64,000 bases of DNA from a virus (IMGVR_UViG_3300031111_000011:1-64000), one strand, 5' to 3'. Numbered from the stretch's first letter, positions 1,542-34,367 are shown. The notes: generated by a model from the letters alone, not told the origin. A program made the numbers and translations.

Positions 1542-1847
1542 ATGAAAAAAACTGAACTCTACTTTGGCATGGAAGTCCACGGACGGGATGATGTTACCGA
1601 AGATGAATTCAACGAATTCCTGGAGAGGCATGTCTCCCCTGCTTTTCCTGACGGCCTGACCGTTACCGATGCGCAAGGCCAATGGCTTTCACCCGTGGCT
1701 GGTCTGGTCAAGGAAGGCTCGAAGATCCTGATTCTGCTCCACGATGGCGCGGACAACGCCATTGAATCCATCCGCAATATTTACAAAGCTCTCTTTGCTC
1801 AGGACAGCGTCCTTCGCATTGATCATGCCGTCAACGTCTCTTTCTAA
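1542..1847 (+). CDS. hypothetical protein (101 aa)
   Basis: ORF with SD aaggagcacagactATG. Confidence 0.55.
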   Translation: MKKTELYFGMEVHGRDDVTEDEFNEFLERHVSPAFPDGLTVTDAQGQWLSPVAGLVKEGSKILILLHDGADNAIESIRNIYKALFAQDSVLRIDHAVNVSF

Positions 1848-1857
1848 GGAGGAATCA

Positions 1858-2028
1858 TGACCACTTTTCTGCACTTCGCGGTCTGGATGACAATGTTGGA
1901 CGACCATCTCACTTTGGCAAGCACCAGCACCTGGACGGTCTATCGGTCTTTGCTTAGTCGGCAAACCAGCGAGGGAATCGACCCCTTCTGCAAAAGCATT
2001 GAGCGTTTCTACGGCGCGGATCGATAAC
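1858..2028 (+). CDS. hypothetical small protein (56 aa)
   Basis: Strong SD ctaaggaggaatcATG, 10 nt after previous stop. Confidence 0.45.
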
Positions 2029-2086
2029 CAAACACACCAGGGGAGCACCTTTAGGGGTGCTCCTCACTATGGAGGAGATCTACTAA

Positions 2087-2181
2087 TGAGCCCTGAGCAG
2101 GAGTACAAACGACAACGGGCGAAGATCCTGGCCGAAATCGAACGTAGACAACAACAGCAACAGAAGGAGCGAAAACGATGA
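2087..2181 (+). CDS. hypothetical mini-protein (31 aa, basic/Gln-rich)
   Basis: SD ggaggagatctactaATG; ATGA overlap with next gene. Confidence 0.3.
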
Positions 2182-2345
2182 AACACTTTTTGATCCACTA
2201 CAAGCGGCCCGACAGTGGCCGCATCTATCATGTCGAGGTCACGGGTGAAACCATCATGGATGCCTGGAAGTCCGCACCGGAGCGTGTTCAGTTCCTGGAA
2301 CGAGGGAAAGCGCACCGTCGCTACGGCATAACCGAAATCTGCTGA
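2178..2345 (+). CDS. hypothetical small protein (55 aa)
   Basis: ATGA start-stop coupling; SD aggagcgaaaacgATG. Confidence 0.4.
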   Translation: MKHFLIHYKRPDSGRIYHVEVTGETIMDAWKSAPERVQFLERGKAHRRYGITEIC

Positions 2346-2421
2346 CCGCTTTACGTCTCCGCATCGCCTGGGAATCGGTGCGGAGAGGCAAACCGATCAA
2401 CTCACTCAATAGGAGGTCATC

Positions 2422-2571
2422 ATGGATAACACCTGCGATCAATGTCTATGCAAGAATTGTGACCATCCGGACTGCCCGTACCCATGCAAGGCGCAGCACT
2501 GCTGCGAAGCACCAGTCACTCGATGCCAGGATCTGGAAGATTATCGAAATGCGAAGGGATACAACAAGTAA
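2422..2571 (+). CDS. Cys-rich mini-protein (49 aa, 8 Cys; zinc-ribbon-like)
   Basis: SD aataggaggtcatcATG; CxxCxxC...C...C motifs. Replaces the mis-framed long ORF 2378-2722. Confidence 0.45.
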   Translation: MDNTCDQCLCKNCDHPDCPYPCKAQHCCEAPVTRCQDLEDYRNAKGYNK

Positions 2572-2572
2572 T

Positions 2573-2722
2573 ATGACGGTACAAGACGCACTCGCCAAAT
2601 TGGAAGAGATCCACAGGCCGAAAGGCGAACCCAAAGAGGTGAAACCGTCCACCTTCCGCAGAACGTGGAATGTGAACGAATACCGACTCAGGAGGATGTC
2701 ATGGAAGAGAGGAAAATCATGA
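2573..2722 (+). CDS. hypothetical small basic protein (49 aa)
   Basis: In-frame ATG 2 nt after previous stop; C-terminal part of listed ORF 2378-2722. Confidence 0.35.
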   Translation: MTVQDALAKLEEIHRPKGEPKEVKPSTFRRTWNVNEYRLRRMSWKRGKS

Positions 2723-3438: not shown

Positions 3439-3831
3439 ATGGGACGAAGCGTAAGCACACCACCGAATTGCGAGGCCGTGGCCTACCAGCACATGGACTT
3501 TGAGGATGAAATCGACTGGGAAATGTTCGTTGAGGACATCCGCTTCATTGCCACCTCACTCTGGCCGTCTCTGGATGAGACGGACGAATGGGTGGGCCGT
3601 GAGGACCACGCACTCCTTGAGAATCAGCACTGCTACATCGGGGTGAGTGAGTACTGTGGACTCATCGCCATCTGGCTCCAGGTCAAGGAGGACATGAACA
3701 ACGATCATCCGGAGCTTTCCCGGCACTGGTGTGGTCAGATTAGCAAGCGGTTCGTGGAAACCTTCGGGGAACTGCGGAAGGTTGGAACATTCAGCAACGG
3801 GGAAGCCGTTTTCGAAAGGATCGCCGCATAA
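3439..3831 (+). CDS. hypothetical acidic protein (130 aa)
   Basis: SD taggaggaaatcATG. Confidence 0.55.
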   Translation: MGRSVSTPPNCEAVAYQHMDFEDEIDWEMFVEDIRFIATSLWPSLDETDEWVGREDHALLENQHCYIGVSEYCGLIAIWLQVKEDMNNDHPELSRHWCGQISKRFVETFGELRKVGTFSNGEAVFERIAA

Positions 3832-4010
3832 TGACCACCTATCTCATGTACATCGACTGGATGACCATCGGGTCAGGGCTGCTTTCTGCCGATGACCTGG
3901 ACTTTCTCACCCTAATGGTGGACCGATCCAGTCAGGTGAAGGTGCTCCTGGCTCAAAGGGATGCAGGAATTCAGAGAATCAGCAACCGATTCACGGGCAT
4001 TAGCCGATAG
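3831..4010 (+). CDS. hypothetical small protein (59 aa)
   Basis: TAATG start-stop overlap; ends with TAG just before an SD. Confidence 0.4.
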   Translation: MTTYLMYIDWMTIGSGLLSADDLDFLTLMVDRSSQVKVLLAQRDAGIQRISNRFTGISR

Positions 4011-4019: not shown

Positions 4020-4439
4020 ATGGTATCAGCCCAGATAGCGGAGAAGATCCAAAAAGTCCACGCACTTGCCGAACGCGGCATCAACGGGGAAAAGGCAGCA
4101 GCAGAACGGCTGCTTGCCAGCCTACTCACCAAGCACGATGTCACCCTGGAGCAGGTGGGCATCTTCAATGCCAAGCGATCCTGGCACACATTCTCTTTCC
4201 AAGACAAACAACAGAAAGCTTTTCTCTCTCATATCATCGCAGCAGTAGTAAAACGGAAGTATAGTGCGGAGATAAATGGGAAGAAGTTTTTTGCATGGAT
4301 GACTGAAGACGAGGCCACAAACGCACGGCTTGCTTACGTTAAAGCGAAGAGATACTATAACCGGGAAGTAAAGTCTGCAAAAAACAGAACAGCGAATATG
4401 ATCATCAACTCACTCTACACCAAAGGAGAAGCACAATGA
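4020..4439 (+). CDS. hypothetical protein (139 aa)
   Basis: SD taggaggagctaATG. Confidence 0.55.
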   Translation: MVSAQIAEKIQKVHALAERGINGEKAAAERLLASLLTKHDVTLEQVGIFNAKRSWHTFSFQDKQQKAFLSHIIAAVVKRKYSAEINGKKFFAWMTEDEATNARLAYVKAKRYYNREVKSAKNRTANMIINSLYTKGEAQ

Positions 4440-8268: not shown

Positions 8269-8628
8269 ATGGAGATCCAAAAGAAAAAGGCCATCAAGAA
8301 TGTTCTCACTGCTTGCAAGCTCATCCGCAAGGAATTCGGTGACCTCCCCTACCCCCAGTTAATTTGTCTGCTGGAGGTCATGGTCGAGGAAGGGATTACA
8401 AAAAACCAAATCGGGGCAAATAACGATCCGACGATGCCAGTAAGCTCTATCAACAGATATGTTGCGAGGCTCACAGACGAGCACGAGCGCAGAAACGCAG
8501 CAGGAAAGCGGGTTCCCGGTCCCCTGACAGTGGATCGAGATCCTGACCTTCCCCAACGTCACCTCGTGAGTCTGACGTCTTTTGGCAAGTTGTTTCGGGA
8601 AGCCCTGGTCAATGAAATGGAGGCTTAA
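8269..8628 (+). CDS. putative winged-helix DNA-binding protein (119 aa)
   Basis: SD aaagggagtcaagaATG; helix-rich small protein downstream of a promoter and nested inverted repeats. Confidence 0.45.
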   Translation: MEIQKKKAIKNVLTACKLIRKEFGDLPYPQLICLLEVMVEEGITKNQIGANNDPTMPVSSINRYVARLTDEHERRNAAGKRVPGPLTVDRDPDLPQRHLVSLTSFGKLFREALVNEMEA

Positions 8629-8849
8629 TGACCAGCCAGGAAATCACTTTTCAGTTCGATGATAACACCCTTAGTGTTGAGGTGGCAGAGGACGGGATCA
8701 ACACTGAGGGTGCGCTATTCCGCTTGAATAAGATCTCTCTGGATGATCAAGAGGAATTGGGTAAGCTCAGGCGACACATAAATGATGCGCTCACCCGATA
8801 CCAAATGCTGCTCGAAAAATATCCAGAGGCAAAGGATGGAGAGATGTAA
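8628..8849 (+). CDS. hypothetical acidic protein (73 aa)
   Basis: TAATG overlap coupling. Confidence 0.5.
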   Translation: MTSQEITFQFDDNTLSVEVAEDGINTEGALFRLNKISLDDQEELGKLRRHINDALTRYQMLLEKYPEAKDGEM

Positions 8850-10231: not shown

Positions 10232-10465
10232 ATGAAATATCCCACACTGGAAGAAGTGAATACGGCGAGTCACAGGGAGCTGGCCCGATGGTATCGGTTT
10301 CTACCCTCCCCCGGACTGAATGCCATCAATGATGGTCTTCCCAGGAAGGACTGGGAGAAAGTCGTGGAGCAGGAATGTGCCATCATGAACACCATCATAG
10401 AGCGATTCTCCGCAATGGGGGGTTTCAACCCCGCCCTGAGCAAGAAGATCGGGTGGAAGGCATGA
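10232..10465 (+). CDS. hypothetical protein (77 aa)
   Basis: SD taaggaggataaATG. Confidence 0.5.
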   Translation: MKYPTLEEVNTASHRELARWYRFLPSPGLNAINDGLPRKDWEKVVEQECAIMNTIIERFSAMGGFNPALSKKIGWKA

Positions 10466-10719
10466 GAATTCAACTCACTCCAGAGGAGATCGACGGACTG
10501 AAGACGTGGTTGGCGTACCCAAAGAAGGTCCGCAGAGGGGAATGTCCGTTTGTCTTTGTGCCGGGGAATACCTGTGCTCGTATCTGCCGCATGGTTTTTC
10601 CGGGTGATGAACTCGGCCTGTGCCCCTGTGACCAAGAGGGCGCAGACCATAAAAAAATCTATGAAGTTGCACGAGAAGGTGCGGAAAGGGGGTACATCAC
10701 AATTGGACTCGGACATTAA
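10462..10719 (+). CDS. hypothetical Cys-containing protein (85 aa)
   Basis: ATGA overlap; internal Met of listed ORF 10375-10719. Confidence 0.45.
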   Translation: MRIQLTPEEIDGLKTWLAYPKKVRRGECPFVFVPGNTCARICRMVFPGDELGLCPCDQEGADHKKIYEVAREGAERGYITIGLGH

Positions 10720-11713
10720 TGGCACGGTGATTTTTCTGACACCGTTTGGATCGCATCTCTACGGTACATCCACTCCGGAGTCGGATCTGGACTACAAGGG
10801 GGTGTATCTGCCGACAAAGGAGCAGATCCTGATCGGGAAGATCCCCAAGACTATCACTCGAAACACCAAGGTCGGAGAGGGGAAGAACAGCAAGGAAGAC
10901 ATTGACTTTCAACTTTATTCTCTCCCCTACTTTGTGGACCTTCTGGTCCAGGGTGAAACGTCGGCTATCGACATGATCCATGTCCGAAAGGATCAAGCTC
11001 TCGTGTGGACGGATGAGTGGGAACGGCTGCACCGCAACCGTCACATGAGCTACAGCAGAAATATGAAGGCGTTCGTCGGGTATGCCCGTAAACAAGCGGC
11101 CAAGTACGGGGTCAAAGGCAGTCGCCTTGCAGCCATGCAAGACGTCCTTGAATACCTGATGGCCTATATCCAGAAGGAGATTCTGTATGATTATGAACGT
11201 GATACCAAACTTCGAGACGTATGGGATGATCTTCCTGATGGTGATCATATTCATCGTCTTGATCCGACTGATCGAACTCCTTATCGCATGTATCAGGTCT
11301 GTGGGAAGAAGTTTATGGAGACAGTCAAGATTCGAGAAGTCTACGCTTCGATCAAGAAGTCCTATGATCAATACGGTCACCGGGCAGAACTGGCGAAGAA
11401 GAATCAGGGCATCGACTGGAAGGCAGTATCCCACGCACTCCGTGCGGCTTACCAACTGGTGGAAATCTTTGGGTCCGGGGATCTGGCCTTTCCACTCGCT
11501 GATGCGGCTTATCTGCGGAAAGTGAAGGAAGGCTCACTGGACTGGACCTCCTGGGTTCAACCCCACCTGGAGGAAATGATGGGCCGGGTGGAGTGTATGG
11601 CCTCTCTCTCCAAATTCCCAGAACAAGTGGACCGGACCTTCTGGAACAATCTGACTATCGACATCATGGAAACGTGGTTACTTACTCAAACTGTAGGAGG
11701 TGAATTATGCTGA
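10661..11713 (+). CDS. nucleotidyltransferase (Pol-beta/minimal NTase fold) of unknown specificity (~350 aa)
   Basis: TPFGSHLYGTSTPESDLDYKG fits hG[GS]-x9-13-D-x-[DE]; a third acidic motif EDIDFQLY lies ~45 aa downstream; start uncertain (ATG 10661 overlaps upstream gene). Confidence 0.55.
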   Translation: MKLHEKVRKGGTSQLDSDINGTVIFLTPFGSHLYGTSTPESDLDYKGVYLPTKEQILIGKIPKTITRNTKVGEGKNSKEDIDFQLYSLPYFVDLLVQGETSAIDMIHVRKDQALVWTDEWERLHRNRHMSYSRNMKAFVGYARKQAAKYGVKGSRLAAMQDVLEYLMAYIQKEILYDYERDTKLRDVWDDLPDGDHIHRLDPTDRTPYRMYQVCGKKFMETVKIREVYASIKKSYDQYGHRAELAKKNQGIDWKAVSHALRAAYQLVEIFGSGDLAFPLADAAYLRKVKEGSLDWTSWVQPHLEEMMGRVECMASLSKFPEQVDRTFWNNLTIDIMETWLLTQTVGGELC

Positions 11714-12917: not shown

Positions 12918-13223
12918 ATGAAAGAGTGTAACCGTTGCGGGAACCGGGAGTGTGACTTCATTCACGCTCCCAAGGAGCCGAAGGGCAAACCCAAAATGAG
13001 CTTTCCGAAGCTCCGGAAAGCCCCTCCAAAGGGGATCGCCCATGTTATGGGGCTTCCGTGCCCCATTTGGCGAAAAATCGACCCGATGCACAACCCTCTG
13101 TGGGAGAACCTGGACTCGGCCACCATCGTCAAGCTCCGGGATCTGCGGAAGGGGCTCGGCACACAGCGAAAAAACAAGGAGTGGAAAGGAGGCAAGAAGC
13201 GTAAACTTTGGAAAAACAGGTAG
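12918..13223 (+). CDS. hypothetical basic protein (101 aa)
   Basis: SD caaggaggattATG; Lys/Arg-rich. Confidence 0.55.
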   Translation: MKECNRCGNRECDFIHAPKEPKGKPKMSFPKLRKAPPKGIAHVMGLPCPIWRKIDPMHNPLWENLDSATIVKLRDLRKGLGTQRKNKEWKGGKKRKLWKNR

Positions 13224-22528: not shown

Positions 22529-22701
22529 ACGGAAAGAAAGCCAAAGCCATTCGGAAAGCGGTCTATCGAGATGTACCTGGAGGCTCCACTGGGGAGCAGC
22601 GCCGGTATGTCCAACACACCAAAACCAAGGTTGTCTACGTGACCGGCCATCGACGTGCCTACGTGGATGCCAAGAAACTCATCAAAGAAAGGGGGATCTA
22701 A
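22525..22701 (+). CDS. hypothetical basic protein (58 aa)
   Basis: SD cacggaggaatacctATG. Confidence 0.45.
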   Translation: MNGKKAKAIRKAVYRDVPGGSTGEQRRYVQHTKTKVVYVTGHRRAYVDAKKLIKERGI

Positions 22702-22916
22702 TGAAACACGCAATCAAACGCCGGGTCTTTTTCTGGAGAAACTTCAACTTCGTGATGCGGGGTTTTCGTCGGCTGAGTACCCGGCTGGAGCGGATTCAGA
22801 AGGAGCGAAAAGCGGAACTCATCGCCATGGCAATCAAGATGAATGCCCTGGAGCGGGAACATGAGGACACGTCGGTGACCCTCAAGAACCTCAAGGAGAT
22901 GTTTCCGGCCCTGTAA
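22701..22916 (+). CDS. hypothetical basic protein (71 aa)
   Basis: TAATG overlap; trimmed from listed ORF 22476-22916. Confidence 0.45.
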   Translation: MKHAIKRRVFFWRNFNFVMRGFRRLSTRLERIQKERKAELIAMAIKMNALEREHEDTSVTLKNLKEMFPAL

Positions 22917-24823
22917 TGTTCCCAACGCTGTACCAGGAGTTCATCTACAAGCGAACCTATTCTCGGTGGCTGGATGAACTCCTTCGGAGAGAGGAGTGGG
23001 AGGACACGGTAGCTCGGTACCAAGAGTTCTTCCTGGACGGTAAACTCAAGGATATTCCCGATGCAGCTAAGGTGGAATTCCTTGAGGCTACCGGTGCAAT
23101 CTACAACCTCGAAGTTATGGGGTCCATGCGGACCCTGTGGACTGCTGGTCCTGCCTTGGCCCGTGAAAACATCTGCGGGTACAACTGTGCTTACAAGGCA
23201 GTCAATACTGTGCGAAGCTTCGCTGAGATCCTGTACATCCTGCTCTGTGGTACTGGGGTTGGGTACAGTGTGGAGCGGCAGGAGATCAACCAACTCCCTG
23301 AAGTCCCGCCTTACTTCTCCACTCCAGAACGCACCGTTGTGTTCTCTGATTCGAAGAAGGGATGGGCTGAGGGATTTCTCAAGTGGATGAACGCCCTCTA
23401 TAAGGGTGAGTTGCTTGAGTACGACCTCTCCCGAATCCGTCCTGCTGGATCACGGCTGAAGACCTTCGGGGGCAGAGCCAGTGGACCTGAGCCCCTCCAG
23501 GAACTTCTGGAATTCGCCAAACGCATTTTTCTCAGTGCCAAGGGACGGAAGCTAACGAGCCTGGAATGTTACGACATCTGCTGCAAGATCGCTGAGGTGG
23601 TTGTCGTAGGAGGTGTGAGACGGTCTGCCTGTATTTGCCTCACCAACCTGTCCGATGACCGGATGGCTAAGGCCAAGACGGGTGAGTTCTGGCTTCTCAA
23701 CCCCCAGAGATCCCTGTCCAACAATTCGGTGGCGTACACCGAGAAGCCTCAAGTGCGGAAGTTCATGAGTGAGTGGCTCAAGCTCATGGAGTCCCAGACC
23801 GGAGAGCGGGGGATCTTCAATCGAAGAGCAGCAGAGGTTGCTGTGCAGCGCACCCTACGCCGAAAGGGAGGGTTCGCTTGGGGCTGCAATCCTTGCGGGG
23901 AAGTGATTCTCCGTCCGTCTGGTCAGTTCTGCAACCTGAGCGAGGCGATCATTCGGGCTGAGGACACTCTTGAAACAATTCTCAAGAAGGTCCGATACGC
24001 AACCATCCTGGGTTGTGTCCAGGCCACACTCACTGCGTTCAAATTTCTGGGGAGTTCATGGACAGTGAACACCGAGGAGGAGCGACTCCTTGGGGTGTCT
24101 CTCACAGGTCTTATGGACCATCCAATTCTTAGTGAGGTGTCGGACAAGGCCAAGGCATGGCTTGTCAAGATGAAAGGAGAGGCCATTGAAACAGCGGAAA
24201 GGTGGTCGGAGATTCTTGGAATTCCGATGCCGAAAGCGATTACGACCGTCAAGCCGTCTGGAACAGTCAGTCAACTGGTTGACTCTGCATCCGGACTTCA
24301 CCCTCGCTTTGCTCCTTTCTATGTACGCCGGGTTCGTGTCTCTGCGACAGATCCTGTAGCGAAGATGCTTGTTGACCAGGGAGTTCCCTGTAGCCCTGAA
24401 GTCGGACAGGACACGGTAAGTCCATCCACTTGGGTCTTTGAGTTCCCGGTTAAGTCTCCGGACAACGCGAAGGTAGCCAGCGCAATCACTGCTCTGGAGC
24501 AGTTGGAGTACTGGCTGATGCTCAAACAGCATTGGTGTGAACACAACCCCTCTTGCACGGTCTATGTGGGAGAGGATGAGTGGTTGGAAGTGGGTGCATG
24601 GGTGTGGAAACACTGGGATGAGATTTGCGGTCTTACCTTCATGCCTCGCAGTGACGCAGTTTACAAACTTGCTCCTTATGAGGAGGTAGATGCGAGGACT
24701 TACTACGATCTTGTTGACGCTCTTCCTGACATCAATTTTGGTGAATTGTCTCGATACGAAACCGAAGACCTCACTGAAGGGAGCAGAGAATTCGCCTGTC
24801 AGGGAGGAGCTTGCGAACTATGA
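22916..24823 (+). CDS. nrdJ: ribonucleotide reductase, class II (adenosylcobalamin-dependent NrdJ-like, 635 aa)
   Basis: N-terminal FIYKRTYSRW; active-site GCNPCGEVIL (NPCGE); size typical of NrdJ. Confidence 0.8.
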   Translation: MFPTLYQEFIYKRTYSRWLDELLRREEWEDTVARYQEFFLDGKLKDIPDAAKVEFLEATGAIYNLEVMGSMRTLWTAGPALARENICGYNCAYKAVNTVRSFAEILYILLCGTGVGYSVERQEINQLPEVPPYFSTPERTVVFSDSKKGWAEGFLKWMNALYKGELLEYDLSRIRPAGSRLKTFGGRASGPEPLQELLEFAKRIFLSAKGRKLTSLECYDICCKIAEVVVVGGVRRSACICLTNLSDDRMAKAKTGEFWLLNPQRSLSNNSVAYTEKPQVRKFMSEWLKLMESQTGERGIFNRRAAEVAVQRTLRRKGGFAWGCNPCGEVILRPSGQFCNLSEAIIRAEDTLETILKKVRYATILGCVQATLTAFKFLGSSWTVNTEEERLLGVSLTGLMDHPILSEVSDKAKAWLVKMKGEAIETAERWSEILGIPMPKAITTVKPSGTVSQLVDSASGLHPRFAPFYVRRVRVSATDPVAKMLVDQGVPCSPEVGQDTVSPSTWVFEFPVKSPDNAKVASAITALEQLEYWLMLKQHWCEHNPSCTVYVGEDEWLEVGAWVWKHWDEICGLTFMPRSDAVYKLAPYEEVDARTYYDLVDALPDINFGELSRYETEDLTEGSREFACQGGACEL

Positions 24824-25089: not shown

Positions 25090-25329
25090 TTGAATCAGAA
25101 GGGATTCACTTTGATCGAACTGATGATTGTGGTTGCGATCATTGGGATCTTGGGCGCTGTGGCCGTCCCCAATCTCGTTTCTTACAAGCAGAAAGCGGAG
25201 TCGGCAGCACTGGAAATCAAGATCAACCGAGAGAACATGAAAAAGGCGGGGGAGGATCTGAGGGACACCTTCAAGTCCCTCCTCCCCCGGAAGACTTACT
25301 CGAACGAAGTTATTGTGACAAGGGAGTAA
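25090..25329 (+). CDS. type IV pilin-like (prepilin-type N-terminal methylation motif) mini-protein (79 aa, TTG start)
   Basis: MNQKG|[22 protein letters not shown] matches the prepilin leader + N-methyl-Phe + hydrophobic helix signature; SD aggagg 5 nt upstream of TTG. Confidence 0.55.
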
Positions 25330-25331: not shown

Positions 25332-25862
25332 TTGGCAATTGACAAAGACCAGATGCGAGATCTGGTTCGGGATGTCCTGATGTACCTGGACCCTGAGATC
25401 CCCTTCTCTGCTGATGCAGTGGAGTTGATCATGCTCACTATGGCTCAGGAATCCCACATGGGAACATACATTAAGCAGCTTGGTACAGGACCGGCCAAGG
25501 GTGTGGTTCAGATGGAACCCTCTACTGAGGAAGACATCTGGGACAATTACCTGCGGTACAAGAAGGATCTGGCAACTAAGGTACGTGCGCTCTATGCAGC
25601 CATGCAAATCGGGCGTGACTTTGAGCTTGATCCTCTTCGACACAACCTCGCCTACCAGATCGCCATGGCGAGGGTTCACTATCGGAGAGTGAGTGACCCT
25701 CTTCCCAAGGTCCATTTCCAACTTCAGTTTGAGGCTGATGGGATCATCACAGAGAACAGTGTGAAGCGACTCGCTGAGTATTGGAAGGAGCATTACAACA
25801 CACCACTTGGAAAGGGAAAACCTGAAGAGGCGGTGTACAACTATGTGAGGTTCGCTGTATGA
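25332..25862 (+). CDS. putative lytic transglycosylase/lysozyme-like protein (176 aa, TTG start)
   Basis: MAQESHMG (catalytic E-S), GVVQM and AYQIAMA resemble SLT-domain motifs; SD aagggag + TTG. Confidence 0.45.
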   Translation: MAIDKDQMRDLVRDVLMYLDPEIPFSADAVELIMLTMAQESHMGTYIKQLGTGPAKGVVQMEPSTEEDIWDNYLRYKKDLATKVRALYAAMQIGRDFELDPLRHNLAYQIAMARVHYRRVSDPLPKVHFQLQFEADGIITENSVKRLAEYWKEHYNTPLGKGKPEEAVYNYVRFAV

Positions 25863-26446: not shown

Positions 26447-27661
26447 ATGGAAAAGGTCATGTTTTCATCAGGCAGAATCCCTGCCTACTCATGGTTACCA
26501 GTGGACAAACTGGAGGAAGGCGCTCTGGAACAGATCCAGGCTTGCACTGCCCACCCCAAGGCTTACCACCACATGGCTGTGATGCCCGACTGTCACCAGG
26601 GATATGGGATGCCCATTGGCGGTGTGGTTGCCCTGGACGGCGCAATCAGCCCCAACATGGTGGGGGTGGACATCGGCTGTGGGATGAGTGTGGTCCGCAC
26701 CAACGCCAAATTCGTTCACACTTATCAAATCAAGGAAATCCTGAACCGACTCAAGACCATGGTTCCTGTCGGTGAGGGGAAGTTTCGATCTGACCCCGTC
26801 TCCTGGCCCAAGTGGGTGGAGTATCTGGACAAGGTCAAGGAGCGTCCTGACTGGATGAAGGGCTCTAACTGGCATCGGTTCAAGTGCAGCATGGGAACTC
26901 TGGGAGGTGGGAACCACTTTCTGGAGCTTCAGCGGGATGAAGAGGGTTACCTCTACATGATGCTCCACTCCGGTTCCCGTGGCCTGGGGTACGCCATTGC
27001 CAAGTACTACAACGAACTGGCCCAGACCTACTGCGTCAACCTAGACATCCCCAACAAAGATCTGGCTTACCTGCCGACCGATCACAAGTGGGGGCAAGCC
27101 TACATCCGGGACATGAACTTCGCCCTGGCTTTTGCCAAGGAAAACCGCAGGGTCATGATGGATGCCTTCAAATTCGCTTTCTTCCACGTTCTTGGATCTC
27201 CTGTCCGGGAGGACATTGATGTTGTCGATGAGATCGACATCCACCACAACTACGCGGCATTGGAGCACCACTTCGGCAAGGATCTGTGGGTTCACCGGAA
27301 AGGCGCGACTTCGGCCCAGTCTGGACAACTGGGGATCATTCCCGGTTCCATGGGAACCCACTCCTACGTCGTCGCTGGTAAGGGGAACCCGGACTCCTTC
27401 AAGTCCTGCTCCCACGGTGCTGGTCGAGTGAAGGGTCGGATGGCCGCTACTCGTGAACTCGACCGGATGGAGCAGGAGAGGAAGATGGACGGCATTGTCT
27501 TTGACGGGTTCAAAACCCTGAAGAAGGGTAAGCTGAAAGGTGCGTATGACCTGGGCGAAGCCCCTGATGCCTACAAAAATATTGATACTGTCATGTGGCA
27601 CCAGGGGGATCTGGTGGACGTGGTAGTAAAACTCAAACCGATAGGAGTCTTGAAAGGGTGA
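26447..27661 (+). CDS. rtcB: RNA-splicing ligase RtcB (3'-phosphate/5'-OH RNA ligase, 404 aa)
   Basis: RtcB signatures HMAVMPDCHQGYG, GGNHFLELQ, MLHSGSRGLG, CSHGAGR; ATG 4 nt after SD. Confidence 0.9.
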   Translation: MEKVMFSSGRIPAYSWLPVDKLEEGALEQIQACTAHPKAYHHMAVMPDCHQGYGMPIGGVVALDGAISPNMVGVDIGCGMSVVRTNAKFVHTYQIKEILNRLKTMVPVGEGKFRSDPVSWPKWVEYLDKVKERPDWMKGSNWHRFKCSMGTLGGGNHFLELQRDEEGYLYMMLHSGSRGLGYAIAKYYNELAQTYCVNLDIPNKDLAYLPTDHKWGQAYIRDMNFALAFAKENRRVMMDAFKFAFFHVLGSPVREDIDVVDEIDIHHNYAALEHHFGKDLWVHRKGATSAQSGQLGIIPGSMGTHSYVVAGKGNPDSFKSCSHGAGRVKGRMAATRELDRMEQERKMDGIVFDGFKTLKKGKLKGAYDLGEAPDAYKNIDTVMWHQGDLVDVVVKLKPIGVLKG

Positions 27662-28053
27662 TCCTTGACCACGAAAAGCTCTACGAGCATTCCGTAGAGT
27701 ATTGGGCGAAGCATAGACCTGACCCTCATCCGAGGGTCTTCTATGTGATGCTCGATGTTGCGAATCTTCTTGTAAAAGCAGGAGTAACAAACTGCCTCTA
27801 CGATAGATACAAACATCGAAGATTGGGGATGCACGTACCATACAAGTATGTGCTCACTCTTTCCGAGCCGGAAATTGAATCTGCGTTTAAGAAGAGGTTC
27901 TGTCATCTCAAGAAGGAGGATTCCGGCACGGAAACCTTCTACGCAACCAAGGAGCTACGGGACTGGATCGAGTGGGTTCAAGGTCTTCAAAATGCCAATC
28001 TTCTTCCGTTTGAAATCAGACACCGTATCTGGGAATCCCTCGAAGTGAAATGA
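27658..28053 (+). CDS. hypothetical protein (131 aa, GTG start)
   Basis: GTGA overlap with rtcB stop; SD taggag 10 nt upstream. Confidence 0.45.
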   Translation: MILDHEKLYEHSVEYWAKHRPDPHPRVFYVMLDVANLLVKAGVTNCLYDRYKHRRLGMHVPYKYVLTLSEPEIESAFKKRFCHLKKEDSGTETFYATKELRDWIEWVQGLQNANLLPFEIRHRIWESLEVK

Positions 28054-28328
28054 AACCAATCGAAACCTTCCTGCTACGAGGAGATAAACTCGCTCGTAGA
28101 CGGTACGGTTTTGTGTTCGACCCGGAATCTTGTGAGTTGGTCTTGTCCTACTACTACGAGGAGGACCGGCCAACTCCAAGACATCGGTGGACAATCCACA
28201 AACAATGGTCAACGGAACTCAGCGATATTCTCGTTGGGGGCATCACTCTGGAGAAGATCAAAATACCAGAACCAGTAGTGAATGCTGTTCGTCTGAAATT
28301 CGCTAAACAGATAGGAGTGAGAAAATGA
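28050..28328 (+). CDS. hypothetical protein (92 aa)
   Basis: ATGA overlap. Confidence 0.5.
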   Translation: MKPIETFLLRGDKLARRRYGFVFDPESCELVLSYYYEEDRPTPRHRWTIHKQWSTELSDILVGGITLEKIKIPEPVVNAVRLKFAKQIGVRK

Positions 28329-28483
28329 AAGTCAAAATTTATTACGGGTACTTCAGTAGCGTGGAAATGAAGTTTAATGAAGTTTTTGGGGAGCGAAAGG
28401 ACATACGCATCTCTCATGTCCGGCAGACTCCTATTGGAGACACCCGCTACATTATGCTCAGTGTCTTCTATGAGGAGGTCTAA
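28325..28483 (+). CDS. hypothetical small protein (52 aa)
   Basis: ATGA overlap; ends 2 nt into the next gene. Confidence 0.4.
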   Translation: MKVKIYYGYFSSVEMKFNEVFGERKDIRISHVRQTPIGDTRYIMLSVFYEEV

Positions 28484-28638
28484 TGAACTTCTGCAAGAAG
28501 TGCAAGCATTACCAGAAGCTTCCCAGGCATGTGAGCAAGTGCCCCAGTGAGAAGGTGGGCTGGTGTCAGCTTCTGGTCCGGTATGTCGCAGCAGAGGATC
28601 GGTTCAACAAATGCTTCGAGAAACGTGAGGAAGCATGA
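28483..28638 (+). CDS. Cys-rich mini-protein (51 aa, zinc-ribbon-like)
   Basis: TAATG overlap; CKKC...C...C...C. Confidence 0.4.
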   Translation: MNFCKKCKHYQKLPRHVSKCPSEKVGWCQLLVRYVAAEDRFNKCFEKREEA

Positions 28639-28937
28639 AGCTGATCTGCTGTCCCTCTTGTTGGGACGTGTTCAAACTCGCCAAGGAAGAGCGCACCTGC
28701 TCATGCGGACGGTGCTCAGGCAGGTACCTCAACAACACCTACGCCGAGACAAATGGTGAGGGAATCAACCTCGCCATTGGCAACGGGTCACTCCTGCAAG
28801 CGGCTTACAACCTCGACCACTTTGCGAAGGACGCAGAGCGTCACGAGTTCATCGACCACAACCCCGTGATCTGTTGGGTCCGTCCTCCAGAAGGACCGGG
28901 AAACCCACACACCACTGTACGAAAGGAGGAATCATGA
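28635..28937 (+). CDS. Cys-rich protein (100 aa)
   Basis: ATGA overlap; CCPSC...CSCGRC cluster. Confidence 0.5.
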   Translation: MKLICCPSCWDVFKLAKEERTCSCGRCSGRYLNNTYAETNGEGINLAIGNGSLLQAAYNLDHFAKDAERHEFIDHNPVICWVRPPEGPGNPHTTVRKEES

Positions 28938-30322
28938 ACCCCATTCTGAATACTGACTCTTACAAAGCGAGTCATTACAGGCAGTACCCTGAAGATGTGG
29001 CCTGGGTGAGTTCCTATATCGAAGCACGGGGTGGAAAATACCCTGAGACGGTTTTCTTCGGGCTGCAAGCCTTCCTGAAGGAGTACCTAAGCAAACCCTT
29101 CACCCAGGCTCATATCAATGAGGCAGAGGACTTCTGGGAGGCTCACGGCCTCCCGTTCAATCGGGGAGGGTGGGAATACATCCTCGCCAGATACCGGGGC
29201 TATATGCCTATTTTGATCCAGGCGGTGGATGAGGGCTCGGTGGTTCCCACTGGCAATGTTCTTGTTCAGATTATTAACACTGACCCTGAAGTTCCCTGGA
29301 TCACCAGCTACGTGGAAACCGCTCTGCTCCGGGCAATCTGGTACCCCACCACGGTGGCTACCCTTTCCCACTTCTGCAAGCGAGATCTCTACAACTACTG
29401 GAAGGAGTCGAGTGACGCTCCTATTGAGTCCCTGGACTTCAAACTTCACGACTTCGGTGCTCGTGGGGTGAGTTCCCTGGAATCTGCTGGACTGGGTGGG
29501 ATGGCCCACCTCGTCAACTTCAAAGGCACCGATACGGTGGAAGGGGTTCTCGCTGCAAGACGGTACTACAACGAGCCCATGGCAGGATACTCAATCCCTG
29601 CTGCCGAGCACTCCACCATCTGCTCCTGGGGCGGTCCAGGACGAGAAATGGATGCCTTCCGAAACATGATCAGCCAGTTCGGTGGAGACTATCCACTGAT
29701 CGCTGTGGTCAGCGATTCGTACAATATCTGGGACGCAGTGGATAACAAATGGCCTTACCTGGATACCGAGATCAGTGCCAGTGGGTCCACCATCGTGGTC
29801 CGTCCGGACAGTGGAGATCCCCACATCGTACCTGTCGAGGTGATCAGCCGTCTCATGCAGAAGTTCGGATTCACGGTCAATAGCAAGGGCTACCACGTCC
29901 TTCCGGATCGAATTCGAGTTATCCAAGGCGACGGGATTACCGGCGATAGCCTGAATCGCATCCTGTTCAACCTCCGGATGAAGCGTCTCAGCATCGACAA
30001 TATTGCCTTTGGTATGGGTGGTGGGCTGCTCCAGCAGATCAACCGGGATACCTGCAAGTTCGCCATGAAGTGCAGTGCGGTTGCTGGCAAGAGCAACCAA
30101 TGGCAACCGGTGTTCAAGCAACCTGTGGATCAGCCTGACAAGGTGAGCAAAAAGGGTCGGCTGAACCTGATCCGGAACTCGGATGGTGAGTTCGAGACGG
30201 TCCCGGAGAAGTGGGAAGAGTCGCGGGGGGTTATGCCCATCCGGAGCATTAACGGGCTCCGCTACCACACCACAACTTTCGAGGAAATCCGGGGACGGGT
30301 CCAGGAGCACCTCATTGCTTAG
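28934..30322 (+). CDS. nadV: nicotinamide phosphoribosyltransferase (NAMPT/NadV, 462 aa)
   Basis: MNPILNTDSYKASHYRQYPE N-terminus and overall length typical of NAMPT; SD aaaggaggaatcATG. Confidence 0.85.
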   Translation: MNPILNTDSYKASHYRQYPEDVAWVSSYIEARGGKYPETVFFGLQAFLKEYLSKPFTQAHINEAEDFWEAHGLPFNRGGWEYILARYRGYMPILIQAVDEGSVVPTGNVLVQIINTDPEVPWITSYVETALLRAIWYPTTVATLSHFCKRDLYNYWKESSDAPIESLDFKLHDFGARGVSSLESAGLGGMAHLVNFKGTDTVEGVLAARRYYNEPMAGYSIPAAEHSTICSWGGPGREMDAFRNMISQFGGDYPLIAVVSDSYNIWDAVDNKWPYLDTEISASGSTIVVRPDSGDPHIVPVEVISRLMQKFGFTVNSKGYHVLPDRIRVIQGDGITGDSLNRILFNLRMKRLSIDNIAFGMGGGLLQQINRDTCKFAMKCSAVAGKSNQWQPVFKQPVDQPDKVSKKGRLNLIRNSDGEFETVPEKWEESRGVMPIRSINGLRYHTTTFEEIRGRVQEHLIA

Positions 30323-30821
30323 AGTCGGAGTCTTTGTTGGCAGATGCCAACCTTTCCACAAGGGGCATGAGCAGATCATCCGTCAGATGCTCCATGAACG
30401 TGGAACAGAGCGGTGTGTCATTCTCTTGGGGAGCATCAATGCTCCCCTTTCCGCTAAGAACCCTTTCCCCTACCCCACTCGTTATCAGTGGGTGAAGAAC
30501 ACCTTCCAGTATGTCCATGTCTTGGGCATTCCGGACTTCCCCGACAATGATGACTACTGGCTCTTCCATATCATGCAAGTTCTCAAGCTCCCTTACGTGG
30601 AGAGTGTTGACCCTTATTTCTACGTAGGCAGTGAGAGAGACGGTCGGGTCTACCACGAGCGTGGATTCACAACCATGATCGTTCCGCGCAGTAAGCAGTA
30701 CAGTGGGACTGAGATCCGAAGACGGCTTGCAGCCGGTGAGGACTTCAGTGAATTGGTGAGCGACCCTGAGTACGCTCAGTCAGTGAAGAGTGTGTGGGAC
30801 ACTGTGAAACATGCAATTTGA
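30315..30821 (+). CDS. nicotinamide/nicotinate mononucleotide adenylyltransferase (NMNAT, NadM-like, 168 aa, TTG start)
   Basis: Nucleotidyltransferase (H/T)xGH motif VGVFVGRCQPFHKGH; size fits archaeal/phage-type NMNAT; only in-frame start preserving the motif is TTG 30315 overlapping the nadV stop. Confidence 0.7.
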   Translation: MLRVGVFVGRCQPFHKGHEQIIRQMLHERGTERCVILLGSINAPLSAKNPFPYPTRYQWVKNTFQYVHVLGIPDFPDNDDYWLFHIMQVLKLPYVESVDPYFYVGSERDGRVYHERGFTTMIVPRSKQYSGTEIRRRLAAGEDFSELVSDPEYAQSVKSVWDTVKHAI

Positions 30822-30834: not shown

Positions 30835-31128
30835 ATGGCAAATAAGGTCAAACTCACCCAAGAGGAACTCAACGACATCGTCTTTGAAGACGGCGGTGAA
30901 TTCTTCGAGATCATCGAAAAAAGCGAGTGGGAGGATAACGGTAAATGGCAACACCAGGACATCATCTTCAAGTGGAAAGCTGATGGCAAGATCTACTCCC
31001 TCGCCCATGGACGTTCAGGCTCCTACTACACGGATTGGTACTGGGAGGTCCAGGAGGGTGATCACGACGGAATGGTTACCGAGGTCCGTCAGGTCGAGAA
31101 GGTTGTCAAGACCTGGGAGGCAGTGTGA
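30835..31128 (+). CDS. hypothetical acidic protein (97 aa)
   Basis: SD gaaaggaggaaacaaATG. Confidence 0.5.
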   Translation: MANKVKLTQEELNDIVFEDGGEFFEIIEKSEWEDNGKWQHQDIIFKWKADGKIYSLAHGRSGSYYTDWYWEVQEGDHDGMVTEVRQVEKVVKTWEAV

Positions 31129-31343
31129 CGCACTTCTTCACCAAGGAGTCGATCCCAAGAGGACCGTGGGTGACGTACCGCAAGAAACACCTCACTCAGG
31201 CAATGAGGATCGACGGGCCTTTCGGAGTGGAAACCAGGGAGGGCCGAGTGCATTGCCCTGATGGTTATCTGGCAGTGGATGCCCACGGTTATCCTTATCC
31301 AATCGCAACGGATGAGTTCGAAATGATTTACGAGGAGGTGTGA
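31125..31343 (+). CDS. hypothetical protein (72 aa, GTG start)
   Basis: GTGA overlap. Confidence 0.45.
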   Translation: MTHFFTKESIPRGPWVTYRKKHLTQAMRIDGPFGVETREGRVHCPDGYLAVDAHGYPYPIATDEFEMIYEEV

Positions 31344-31720
31344 TGAAAACAATCCTATACGTGATTCAGCACAAGACCACCAAAGAGTTCCTGTCGGGGA
31401 GTGGAATGTACTCCGAGTTGACTTCAAATTTGGGGGAAGCCCGATACCACCACGCGCCAGGGTATGCCAAACTCCACCTGGGGCATTATCTCCGGGGTTA
31501 CCGCAACAGAAGCCACACCAAGGCTTCCTTCGAGATCGTCCCTGTGACGGTCAGCCTGGGGGAAGAACCCCCTGTCCCTGACGACTACGAGTACCTCCAT
31601 TGGTTTAGGGTTGAGGCTGATTTCGGTCCTGCTGACGGTGATGTGAAAGCCATCATGGACGAGCAGTACGAAGCGGAGACAGGGAATCCGGTTCCTGAAA
31701 ACTGGAGACGGGAGGAATAA
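31343..31720 (+). CDS. hypothetical protein (125 aa)
   Basis: SD gaggaggtgtgATG. Confidence 0.55.
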   Translation: MKTILYVIQHKTTKEFLSGSGMYSELTSNLGEARYHHAPGYAKLHLGHYLRGYRNRSHTKASFEIVPVTVSLGEEPPVPDDYEYLHWFRVEADFGPADGDVKAIMDEQYEAETGNPVPENWRREE

Positions 31721-31941
31721 TGTCAAAGATCAATTTACTGACCATGGTCTATGGCAATAAGAGGCTTGAGGTCAAAGCCTCGGACTGTTGGACCAAGAAT
31801 GACAGGCCCATCCTTTTCTGGTGCAAGCGGGTTCGTCAGGAGGGCTATGAGGACATCTGTTTGATTTCCTTTGTGTTCCTCATCTTTGCCATTTGGTTTG
31901 GGTGGAAAACCCCAGATGGCTCACCAGTGAGGATTCCGTGA
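31720..31941 (+). CDS. small membrane protein (73 aa, C-terminal TM)
   Basis: TAATG overlap; hydrophobic ICLISFVFLIFAIWFGW. Confidence 0.5.
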   Translation: MSKINLLTMVYGNKRLEVKASDCWTKNDRPILFWCKRVRQEGYEDICLISFVFLIFAIWFGWKTPDGSPVRIP

Positions 31942-32087
31942 TGCCCAAATACGTCTACGAACCACACACTCCCGTGAAGTTCAAGTGGTGCAAGTGGATG
32001 GTCTGTAAGCATTGTGGCCTTGTCTACTTGCGAAATAAATCGACCAAGAAAGCCGTCCAACTGGGATGCAACTGGAGGGACCGATGA
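31941..32087 (+). CDS. Cys-rich mini-protein (48 aa)
   Basis: TGATG overlap; CKWMVCKHCG. Confidence 0.4.
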   Translation: MPKYVYEPHTPVKFKWCKWMVCKHCGLVYLRNKSTKKAVQLGCNWRDR

Positions 32088-32251
32088 GCGAGAGTGAGTT
32101 GGACATTCTGATGAAAAGGTTAGAGCCCTTTGCAAAAGGACTCTTTTCGGGACAGGTCTGTGAGTGGCCCCAACTTAAGCCTCTTTTGGCAGATCTGTAC
32201 GGATATCTGGAAAGAGAAAAACGCAGGAAGGAGTTTGATGGAACGACGTGA
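32084..32251 (+). CDS. hypothetical protein (55 aa)
   Basis: ATGA overlap. Confidence 0.4.
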   Translation: MSESELDILMKRLEPFAKGLFSGQVCEWPQLKPLLADLYGYLEREKRRKEFDGTT

Positions 32252-33398
32252 AACTTTCCCCACCATATACACCTTATCCAGGGTGGGGAAGCCACAGAGG
32301 TGGCGTGTAGAAGTCAACGAGACTCCCGTCAACGAGTATGCCTTACTGGTAGTTCAGTACGGGCAAGTTGACGGCAAACTCACCCAGAGCGTCAAGAAGA
32401 TCAAAGGCAAGAACATTGGCAAAGCCAATGAGACAACCCCTTACGAACAAGCCCTGAAGGAAGCCAAGGCGAAGCACCTCAAGCAACTCACTCAGGGTGG
32501 ATACTTCGATCACATTCCCACCAAGCAGGAGATGGATGACCTCCTCCTGCCGATGCTGGCTCAACCCTTCGAGAAGCGTAAGAAACATATTGAGTACCCT
32601 GCCATCGTTCAGCCCAAGCTGAACGGAGTGAGGTGTATGGTTCGACGGGTCAGTGAGTCGAGGGTGATCTTCAGATCCCGCCTGGGGAAAAGCTATGACA
32701 AGGTAACGAAACATCTGGTCCCTCACCTTCTCCAGTTGCTTTCTGTTGGGGAAACCTGGGACGGGGAACTCTACGTCCACGGGTGGACCTTCCAGCGCAT
32801 CGTCCGTGCTGTCAAGAAGTTCAGAGAGGACGACACTCCAAAGCTTGAGTTCTGGGTCTACGACAAGGTTAGTGACGAAGATTACGCCGACAGATACAAC
32901 TACCTTTGGAAAAAGATCCTTGAGCACGGAGTACCCGATCTCAGTCCTGTCAAGTGGACTAACAGCCAGATTGTGATCAGGGAAGCTGAGATAAGACAGT
33001 ACCACGACTTCTACGTGCAGCACGGCTTTGAGGGGATCATCATCCGGAACCGGAAGGGTGGTTATCAGACCGTTTACCGGTCCAACAACCTCCAGAAGTA
33101 CAAGGAGTTCATCGACCATGAGTTCATCATTATCGATGGGCGGTCCTCCGAGGGGAACCAGGAAGGGTGTGTGGTATTCACTGTAGAGGGTGTTGCCATT
33201 GACGCCAAAAAGAAAGAGCACCCGGCTGGTGTGGTTCGGTTTGAGGTTGTGCCTCGTGGCACCTTCGAGCAGAGACGCAAATACCTCACCGATATCGATG
33301 ACCTGATTGGCGAGGAGATTACAGTACGTTACCAGGAACTCTCTGAAGATGGTGTGCCTATCTTTCCGGTGGGTGTAGCCATCAGGGACTATGAGTGA
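32238..33398 (+). CDS. ATP-dependent DNA ligase (T7 gp1.3-like, 386 aa)
   Basis: Motif I KLNGVRC (KxDG variant), nucleotidyltransferase motifs FEGIIIRN and EGCVVF; SD aggaaggagtttgATG. Confidence 0.8.
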   Translation: MERRETFPTIYTLSRVGKPQRWRVEVNETPVNEYALLVVQYGQVDGKLTQSVKKIKGKNIGKANETTPYEQALKEAKAKHLKQLTQGGYFDHIPTKQEMDDLLLPMLAQPFEKRKKHIEYPAIVQPKLNGVRCMVRRVSESRVIFRSRLGKSYDKVTKHLVPHLLQLLSVGETWDGELYVHGWTFQRIVRAVKKFREDDTPKLEFWVYDKVSDEDYADRYNYLWKKILEHGVPDLSPVKWTNSQIVIREAEIRQYHDFYVQHGFEGIIIRNRKGGYQTVYRSNNLQKYKEFIDHEFIIIDGRSSEGNQEGCVVFTVEGVAIDAKKKEHPAGVVRFEVVPRGTFEQRRKYLTDIDDLIGEEITVRYQELSEDGVPIFPVGVAIRDYE

Positions 33399-33604
33399 TG
33401 CAATGGATTCATAGGAGTTCTGTGCTGCGGAAGGCAGAATGGCACCGTTGGTTTGCTTGGCACCCCGTGGCTGTGAAAACATATCCGGATGGTTCCGAGA
33501 AGATGATCTGGTGGGAACCTGTTCTCCGTCGAGGAGAGCTTCAACTTGTATTGGATGGTGTCGAGTGGGTCTACGAATATAAGGAGATCGAAGGGGATGA
33601 CTGA
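33395..33604 (+). CDS. hypothetical Trp-rich protein (69 aa)
   Basis: ATGA overlap. Confidence 0.45.
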   Translation: MMQWIHRSSVLRKAEWHRWFAWHPVAVKTYPDGSEKMIWWEPVLRRGELQLVLDGVEWVYEYKEIEGDD

Positions 33605-33764
33605 AGAAAAGAAAAGTATCACCTGCAAGTGCGGTCACTTCAGTGAGTTTCCTGCCTACGTTTACGCTCACTGGTACCACCAGCTTGTTTGGAGATGCCC
33701 GGAATGTGGAACAAGATACGACCTGTTGGCGGGTGTCTACAAGGAGGATGAATATGAAGACTAA
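33597..33764 (+). CDS. Cys-rich mini-protein (55 aa, C4 zinc ribbon)
   Basis: CKCGHF...CPECGTRY. Confidence 0.4.
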   Translation: MTEEKKSITCKCGHFSEFPAYVYAHWYHQLVWRCPECGTRYDLLAGVYKEDEYED

Positions 33765-34032
33765 TCACATGAATGCCTGTTACAAGTGCAAGTGGAGCAG
33801 ACGGGTTCCAGGCAGCAGCCATCACCAGTGCTGCATCCTGGGGCTACATTATGTTGAACGCACTGAGGGTAGGGGATTCGTTGCTCCCACCAGTATGCAC
33901 CCTGTGGAGAAGGGTTGGTTCCTCTGGCCTTTCAACTTTGATCCGGTGTGGCTTGAGTTCTGTGTAGAGTGGGAACGCCAGCGTGAAATCCTGTTCCGGA
34001 AGTTTGACAATATTCTGAGAAAGGAGGCTTAA
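33751..34032 (+). CDS. Cys/His-rich protein (93 aa)
   Basis: CYKCKW...HHQCC. Confidence 0.45.
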   Translation, partial: NMKTNHMNACYKCKWSRRVPGSSHHQCCILGLHYVERTEGRGFVAPTSMHPVEKGWFLWPFNFDPVWLEFCVEWERQREILFRKFDNILRKEA

Positions 34033-34235
34033 TGCCTGTTCGACATCTCACTGCAACAAAGGATGGTCCAAAGGAAGTGGACCTGACTCCTGTCAAAGCC
34101 ATTCGCCTTCACTGCCTTGAGTGTATGGGGTGGGAGGTGACTGAAGTTCGTAAGTGTACTCGCCCAACTTGCCCTCTATTTCCGTTTAGACTTGGAAAGA
34201 ATCCTGGGCGTAAGGGTGTCGGCCCTCAGTCGTAA
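34032..34235 (+). CDS. Cys-rich protein (67 aa)
   Basis: TAATG overlap; CLECMGWE...C..C. Confidence 0.45.
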   Translation: MPVRHLTATKDGPKEVDLTPVKAIRLHCLECMGWEVTEVRKCTRPTCPLFPFRLGKNPGRKGVGPQS

Positions 34236-34250
34236 GTAGGACACTCTACT

Positions 34251-34367
34251 ATGAAGACCCACCGCTATAAGTGTCATAGATGCGGCTACGTGACCTACGT
34301 CACTTACCTGGACGGTGAGGATGGAGTTTGTCCTCATTGCCTCACTCCGATCATTCTACCTATCTAA
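34251..34367 (+). CDS. zinc-ribbon mini-protein (38 aa)
   Basis: CHRCGY...CPHC; last gene before the terminator. Confidence 0.35.
   Translation: MKTHRYKCHRCGYVTYVTYLDGEDGVCPHCLTPIILPI

Follow-up and report, generated by a model that had tools for sequence, protein, structure and literature searches.

The plus strand of the viral sequence IMGVR_UViG_3300031111_000011 carries, from position 1542 to position 34367 of the 64,000-nt stretch analyzed here (positions 1–64000, hereafter the window), a block of ~66–70 early, replication, and nucleotide-metabolism genes, delimited with the record's gene calls, Pfam, and PHROGs. Neighboring genes of this block repeatedly share their stop and start codons, and several of them begin with TTG or GTG. 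The block very probably represents a compact gene arrangement of the kind usual in tailed phage early/replication modules, its dense 1- and 4-nt overlaps and ~20% GTG/TTG starts being textbook phage features and nothing new biologically. Its one unusual item is the gene of a Cas4-like nuclease, which appears to begin at the rare codon ATC. Features described below are on the plus strand unless stated otherwise.

The record's automatic calls place 66 genes on the plus strand, forming 65 co-directional junctions. Exact stop–start overlaps are found at 21 of these, 11 at a gap of −4 nt (nine ATGA and two GTGA) and 10 at −1 nt (seven TAATG and three TGATG), and longer overlaps, of −7 to −35 nt, at 11 further junctions; the −4/−1 junctions make up 32% of the block and overlaps of any kind 49%. 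A second caller, written for the purpose, combines a 3-periodic Markov coding score with the duplex energy of the Shine–Dalgarno (SD) motif and gives no bonus for overlaps; it places 20 of 69 junctions at −4 or −1. Its first, crude version misplaced the starts of the primase, NMNAT, and the Cas4-like nuclease, which were corrected from domain positions and homologs. The original prediction had put the overlapping junctions at more than 25: the firm count is 21, and a ceiling of ~26 is reached only if five small open reading frames (ORFs) absent from the record's calls are included (2086–2181, 10462–10719, 14431–14646, 31941–32087, and 32084–32251), for none of which a homolog was found. Two zinc-ribbon-like small Cys-rich ORFs, 31941–32087 and 2422–2571, are likewise not in the record's gene calls; the former, if real, contributes one TGATG and one ATGA overlap.

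Among the 46 junctions with an absolute gap of at most 20 nt, 21 fall on 2 of the 41 possible gap values, and the gap phase of 2 modulo 3 is taken by 31 of all 65 junctions, where one third would be expected (p = 0.011). A stop codon is directly followed by TG in 13 of 66 cases, against a background of 8.7% (p = 0.004). ATGA at TGA stops shows no enrichment taken alone (10/26 versus 27%, p = 0.14); the signal thus lies in the coincidence of overlap strings with real ORF starts rather than in the strings as such.

We compared the block with five related phages, whose Pol A proteins are 54–60% identical to that of the window and whose contigs measure 21–65 kb. In these relatives, 37 of 169 junctions are at −4 or −1 (22%) and 80 of 169 overlap in any way; one of them, designated L008, reaches 13 of 36 at −4 or −1. 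The curated T7 genome has ~9 of 50 such junctions (~18%) and the structural block on the minus strand of the window 4 of 22 (second caller). The plus-strand block is at the dense end of the normal range. In most prokaryote groups, an average of ~15% of co-directional pairs overlap, with up to ~30% in Aquificae (PMC6728339), and in double-stranded DNA viruses the 1-nt and 4-nt +2 overlaps dominate (PMC8903798, 12,609 virus genomes); phage annotation guides regard overlaps of 1, 4, and 8 bp as indicating an operon (PMC6678273). The stop–start pairs of these two surveys (PMC6728339, PMC8903798) share their motifs and their +2 phase with those of the block. In both, the SD of most junctions lies within the upstream gene, and the overlaps cluster in runs of small, functionally linked genes. 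In comparison with the surveyed prokaryotes the block is denser (32% at −4/−1 and 49% with any overlap versus a mean of ~15%), yet it stays within the range of its relatives. ATGA and TGATG pairs are experimentally coupled in Escherichia coli and Haloferax (PMC6728339, Huber et al. 2019, 720 prokaryotic genomes), whereas coupling in the block is deduced from the geometry of its junctions.

The class II region of T7 offers a close likeness, with co-directional genes for helicase/primase, Pol A, single-stranded DNA-binding protein, endonuclease I, exonuclease, and ligase and with many 1-nt overlaps. The overlaps listed for T7 are mostly at −1, whereas the block has equal numbers at −4 and −1; it also has many more small ORFs than T7, together with NAD-salvage, RtcB/RlaP, and class II ribonucleotide reductase (RNR) genes, and it has no nucleotide similarity to any deposited phage.

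Non-ATG starts of the block

According to the record's calls, the genes of the block begin with 51 ATG, 11 GTG, and 4 TTG codons (77, 17, and 6%), that is, with 23% of non-ATG starts; in well-annotated bacterial genomes the proportions are 81.8, 13.8, and 4.35%, with 18% of non-ATG starts (10.1101/063800). Non-ATG starts amount to 15% in the relatives and, with the second caller, to 30% in the minus-strand block of the window. TTG and GTG starts, described by the original prediction as frequent, are thus at about the bacterial norm. Eight of them had been named as the best supported ones, and seven hold on the basis of conserved motifs and homolog N-termini: the TTG of the DnaB-like helicase, the GTG of Pol A, the GTG of the SSB-like protein, the TTG of the pilin-like gene, TTG 25332, GTG 27658, and the TTG of NMNAT. 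For none of the seven did homologs prove to begin consistently at downstream ATGs. The eighth, GTG 20672 of the Cas4-like nuclease, is contradicted by the evidence given below. Good SD spacing, also attributed to these genes, is confirmed in part of them: the spacing is 5 nt for the pilin-like gene, 5 nt for 25332, 7 nt for NMNAT, ~6 nt for Pol A (with a G-rich motif), 11 nt for SSB, 10 nt for 27658, and 15 nt, which is too long, for the helicase, and the Cas4-like GTG has no SD.

In the helicase, Pol A, and SSB genes, an in-frame ATG is absent upstream as well as for 128–135 codons past the called start, so that non-ATG starts are truly needed. Between the opening of the ORF and the conserved N-terminal motif, no in-frame ATG is found in the helicase, Pol A, SSB, pilin-like, and 27658 genes. 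The N-termini of homologs align with the proposed codon in the helicase, Pol A, endonuclease I, the pilin-like protein, 25332, and 22370.

The TTG of the DnaB-like helicase (13208–13210) lies in a 16-nt overlap with the upstream gene, 15 nt after the SD motif AAGGAGG; no other start codon precedes it in the ORF, and 128 codons separate it from the next ATG. At the aligned position, the homologous loci L005 (position 7346) and L006 (7091) have TTG, and L008 (8339) and L009 (5473) have GTG. A non-ATG start is kept in all five related phages, three of which have the SD 12–15 nt before it. In L005, the automatic call took a downstream ATG, losing 22 conserved residues. The GTG of DNA polymerase A (16153–16155) is located 1 nt past the upstream stop, with the next ATG 131 codons downstream; the resulting N-terminus, (M)QRNIGLDVETSK, aligns with MQRTIALDVETTK, the Met1 region of P0007, and places the Exo I motif DVET at residues 8–11. 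The SSB-like protein, which ends in an acidic DDDIPY tail, has an N-terminus too divergent for comparison with homologs; its GTG (18837–18839) is the sole one with an SD motif among four close candidates, and no in-frame ATG follows for 135 of 205 codons.

Further downstream, the GTG of endonuclease I (21471–21473) overlaps the preceding gene by 11 nt and aligns with Met1 of L006. Identical DNA in L090 and L091 has been called from a GTG (163 amino acids) in one case and from a downstream ATG (120 amino acids) in the other, which shows that automatic start calls are unstable. The GTG of a 52-amino acid gene (22370–22372) opens a 35-nt overlap with the dUTPase gene (22370–22404), and homologs align from residue 1; the same 35-nt overlap is present in L007 (6409–6443), and this conservation in a relative suggests a genuine long overlap. 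The prepilin-like protein begins at a TTG (25090–25092) with the sequence (M)NQKGFTLIE, 5 nt after the SD motif AGGAGGTG; the match to the N_methyl profile begins at residue 1, L007 aligns with this start, and the first ATG to follow is within the hydrophobic helix. The TTG at 25332–25334 starts a 176-amino acid phrog_3108 protein; L007, L005, L006, and L009 have their own start, ATG or GTG, at the aligned position, and position 2 of the profile matches residue 4. This gene (25332–25862) is presumably the one that had been labeled a lytic transglycosylase; it has no Pfam match and no sequence match in the PDB, the function of its PHROG is unassigned, and an AQES-like motif is the sole hint of such an activity, which leaves the label unconfirmed.

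For GTG 27658, homology with L008 begins right past the codon, the start of L008 itself being 8 residues further upstream. The TTG of NMNAT (30315–30317) overlaps NAMPT by 8 nt and follows the SD motif AGGAG by 7 nt. No NMNAT homolog was present among the loci fetched, and the start rests on the nucleotidyltransferase motif GxFxGRxQPxHxGH, which runs from residue 5; the next ATG is beyond HxGH, and the only upstream ATG would create a 140-nt overlap with NAMPT. The start of RlaP is ambiguous (10502–10760): the record's GTG 10574 has no homolog support, ATG 10661 aligns with Met1 of L005 without an SD, and TTG 10703 has the only strong SD. An 85-amino acid ORF with an ATGA overlap (10462–10719) competes for this region.

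Initiation at the overlapped starts

An SD duplex energy of −8 kcal/mol or lower is found at 62% of the overlapped starts, 79% of the non-overlapped starts, and 9% of random positions, and the mean energies of overlapped and non-overlapped starts (−8.3 and −9.8 kcal/mol, respectively) do not differ significantly (p = 0.11). Because 62% of the overlapped starts keep a strong SD of their own, independent initiation is equally possible; translational coupling in the block, which had been taken to be extensive, is plausible from the geometry. Little or no SD is present at four overlapped starts, 22916 (RNR), 19454, 28050, and 3831, and the SD of the first three is weaker in energy than the random-position mean. 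Of all the junctions, these four have the highest likelihood of depending on coupling, and the RNR start at 22916 appears to be the best candidate for obligate reinitiation.

In a module of this type, the ~66–70 co-directional genes would be transcribed as long polycistronic messages. At roughly one third of the neighbor pairs, which share an ATGA, GTGA, or T[AG]ATG overlap, the terminating ribosome could restart at once on the next gene (termination–reinitiation), for the most part with the help of an SD lying within the upstream gene. Around a fifth of the genes use GUG or UUG, a share common among bacteria, which gives somewhat lower initiation rates, and the Cas4-like nuclease would most likely initiate at the near-cognate AUC.

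Other explanations of the pattern can be envisaged. It is conceivable, albeit rather improbable, that the overlaps arose neutrally from genome compaction and from start- and stop-codon turnover and play no part in expression, each gene initiating independently from its own SD. The strong SDs kept at most overlapped starts, their statistically indistinguishable mean energy, and the lack of ATGA enrichment at TGA stops are all consistent with this view, and simulations derive the overlap-length distribution from start- and stop-codon turnover (PMC3887535). It accounts poorly for the four overlapped starts with little or no SD, two of which, those of RNR and 28050, are confirmed by homologs, and coupling of such pairs has been demonstrated in both E. 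coli and Haloferax (PMC6728339). Far less probable is that the pattern is largely an artifact of gene calling, with the true starts at downstream ATGs and many of the small ORFs not being genes. The two endonuclease I starts called on the same DNA in two assemblies, the lack of homolog support for the RlaP GTG, for which an ATG aligns with a homolog and a TTG has the strong SD, and the wrong Cas4-like start show that such errors occur; however, the caller devoid of an overlap bonus gave nearly the same set of junctions, the helicase, Pol A, and SSB genes have no usable ATG, and homolog N-termini support the named non-ATG starts in seven cases out of eight and the overlapped ATG starts in all six cases for which homologs are available, in one of these only roughly.

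The preferred explanation, an ordinary tailed phage module, itself meets several difficulties. The share of −4/−1 junctions in the block (32%) exceeds both the mean of the relatives (22%) and that of T7 (18%). Polycistronic transcription, coupling, and the use of AUC are predictions, and simple promoter and terminator scans, applied in search of operons, gave no signal above shuffled controls. The record's calls come from an automatic caller with a possible bias toward overlapped starts, and many small genes have no homolog, their starts being placed from SD motifs and coding statistics.

The start of the Cas4-like nuclease

The gene for the Cas4-like PD-(D/E)XK nuclease extends over 20594–21481; its homologs carry the PDDEXK_1 domain, and a four-Cys cluster is present. 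Another location for the Cas4-like gene, 14639–15355, was rejected as having no nuclease signature. The called GTG 20672 is not tenable as the start of a full-length protein: conserved coding sequence, with homology to 138 distinct relatives (139 sequences with the window, gathered from IMG/VR and metagenomes), runs 26 codons upstream of it, and these codons are open and conserved, including the invariant P6 and Y25. The GTG itself lies within the conserved YYVT motif and has a poor SD (−3.5 kcal/mol). As judged by tblastn and alignments, homology to the nuclease is detectable from codon 5 of the ORF opening at 20582, and no ATG, GTG, or TTG precedes 20672 in any useful frame (20582–20672). 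In the alignments, Met1 of both L005 and L007 falls on ATC 20594 (20594–20596), which is preceded at 7 nt by the SD motif AAGGA (20582–20586). This motif is just past a G/C-rich hairpin located between the Band_7 and nuclease genes (GGGGAGGGGG-AATCTG-CCCCCCTCCCC, 20550–20576); read from the sequence, the hairpin looks like a terminator, and it was not listed by a simple terminator scan. The ATC is not an artifact of one assembler, the Logan and ENA contigs being identical at this place. Taken together, these features make ATC 20594 the probable start of the nuclease, replacing the called GTG.

In the full-length homologs, a canonical start is found 12–45 codons before the YxVT motif (136/138, two loci being cut by a contig end), with the exception of L006. 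In the window and in L006, no ATG, GTG, or TTG is present upstream of the motif in the open, conserved frame. The L006 nuclease (13218–13398), which is 38% identical, has an ATC with GGAGG 6 nt upstream, and its first canonical start would remove 47 conserved residues. In L027 (8880–8920), an ATT is preceded at 6 nt by GGAGGAG.

The main alternative to an ATC start, which we consider doubtful, is an N-terminally truncated or decaying nuclease in which an ATG has recently mutated to ATC; translation, if there is any, would then proceed from GTG 20672, and the conserved upstream codons would be a relic. ATC is indeed one substitution away from ATG, AUC supports only ~1–2% of AUG initiation in E. 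coli (10.1101/063800), and full-length expression from the ATC is a prediction. Decay is nevertheless difficult to reconcile with the position of GTG 20672 inside the YYVT motif and its lack of an SD, with the 26 open and conserved upstream codons and their invariant P6 and Y25, and with the SD placed 7 nt before the ATC. The ATC of the distant L006 protein and the ATT of L027, each with an SD at 6 nt, also argue against it: all three exceptions are AUY, that is, near-cognate, and none is a start-killing change at the first or second position.

If the nuclease does begin at ATC 20594, one may tentatively go a step further and suppose that it is deliberately translated from AUC or AUU, that the codon is kept in at least two relatives with only 38% identity to each other, and that, joined with the helicase start, it forms part of a conserved dosage control; this extension is, in our opinion, on the unlikely side. 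Such a start would keep the amount of nuclease very low or make it respond to IF3 and to the translation state of the host, and, in view of the helicase's conserved UUG/GUG start and its long SD spacing, start-codon choice would act as a dosage control in the replication module. The situation resembles the near-cognate AUU starts of E. coli infC and pcnB, where AUY stands in place of the AUG of homologs with an SD at normal spacing; it differs in that the codon is AUC and that the gene encodes a phage nuclease, the N-terminus of which is predicted and a link to IF3 hypothetical. A phage initiator tRNA reading AUC was considered and rejected: tRNA-Ile(GAU) (62417–62492) has a U1–G72 pair, does not have the three G–C pairs of the anticodon stem, and is an ordinary elongator.

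These results also bear on annotation. The warning that ATG-only callers would mis-annotate many starts is moot, as standard gene callers accept ATG, GTG, and TTG by default (PMC6853651) and the record's automatic calls already contain every named start but that of the Cas4-like gene (seven of eight). The real blind spot of standard callers is near-cognate starts such as ATC; callers limited to ATG, GTG, and TTG would silently truncate genes such as an AUY-started nuclease. For this uncultured phage, the public automatic calls prove reliable for the most part, with one start to be corrected, the nuclease gaining 26 residues from the ATC, and one doubtful start to be flagged, that of RlaP. Within one nuclease family a probable AUY start recurs, a minor curiosity that deserves an annotation note.

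Individual junctions and genome context

Homologs are available for six overlapped ATG starts. ATGA 4436–4439 joins the stop of gene 4020–4439 to the start of the DUF932 gene, whose N-terminus roughly matches L005; TGATG 15595–15599 (start 15597) begins an NT5C-like gene, the Met1 of which aligns with several relatives; and ATGA 22525–22528 has a Met1 aligned with L006, L022, and L008. The class II RNR starts in TAATG 22914–22918 (start 22916), with no SD (−2.7 kcal/mol) and with phage homologs aligning from residue 1–2, ATGA 28050–28053 has a weak SD (−4.2 kcal/mol) and a Met1 aligned with L010 and L007, and TAATG 34030–34034 (start 34032) also aligns with L010 through its Met1. GTGA 27658–27661 combines the RtcB stop with the GTG of a 131-amino acid gene, with L008 homology from the next codon. 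For the remaining 14 overlapped starts, no homolog was present among the loci fetched.

Several of these 14 are at identifiable genes. The RNR stop shares ATGA 24820–24823 with the start of a 48-amino acid gene, ATGA 25859–25862 links the stop of 25332–25862 to the start of a dGTP/dATP diphosphohydrolase-like gene (for which GTG 25994 is a possible alternative), and NAMPT starts in ATGA 28934–28937. TGATG 19452–19456 (start 19454) joins the SSB stop to the start of a 62-amino acid hydrophobic protein and has no SD (+0.4 kcal/mol), and TAATG 3829–3833 (start 3831) has a weak SD motif. The others, taken from the record's calls, are ATGA 15352–15355, 28325–28328, and 28635–28638, GTGA 31125–31128, TAATG 8626–8630 (start 8628), 22699–22703 (start 22701), 28481–28485 (start 28483), and 31718–31722 (start 31720), and TGATG 31341–31345 (start 31343).

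The products recognized in the block are DUF932, a LuxR-type regulator, a primase, RlaP, KilA-N, the DnaB-like helicase, Pol A, the SSB-like protein, Band_7, the Cas4-like nuclease, endonuclease I, dUTPase, class II RNR, the prepilin-like protein, RtcB, NAMPT, NMNAT, and a ligase. The RNR shares ~52% identity with its counterparts in Roseobacter and Rhizobium phages. The RNA-repair proteins RtcB and RlaP (26447–27661 and 10574–11713) are carried together with the NAD+-salvage proteins NAMPT and NMNAT (28934–30821); this set might counter host defenses that cleave tRNA or deplete NAD.

The locus coordinates of contig k141_1898663 indicate that the phage genome, of metagenomic origin, is circular and measures ~66.9 kb; the window is a rotated version of it that leaves out ~2.9 kb. 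The ENA metagenome contig k141_1898663 measures 67,073 nt, and exact-protein look-ups show that its gene order wraps with respect to the window. This contig and two Logan contigs (run SRR8554445) match the window with 100% identity and provide no substitution pattern usable for testing starts. Megablast with a 20-kb query gave no nucleotide match to deposited phages and no annotated close relative, and a single-protein scan of IMG/VR with Pol A gave no match; the relatives were gathered through protein database and contig look-ups.

The minus strand carries a block of large, presumably structural, genes and a tRNA cluster. A terminator-like hairpin (34383–34401) separates the two convergent blocks, and a minus-strand gene at their meeting point (34648–35940) encodes a 430-amino acid protein with faint precomputed Pfam matches to phage integrase domains. 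A single minus-strand ORF of 2235 amino acids (36987–43694), with a GTG start, has a very high coding score. Twelve tRNA genes are found on the minus strand at 62077–63735 (Gln, Asn, Lys, Ile, Val, two Arg, Thr, two Gly, Ala, and Asp). A thirteenth, weaker match (62587–62659) is seen with Rfam only, ARAGORN giving no call there; read from its fold, it has an odd anticodon loop, UCGUGGC, and is possibly His-like.

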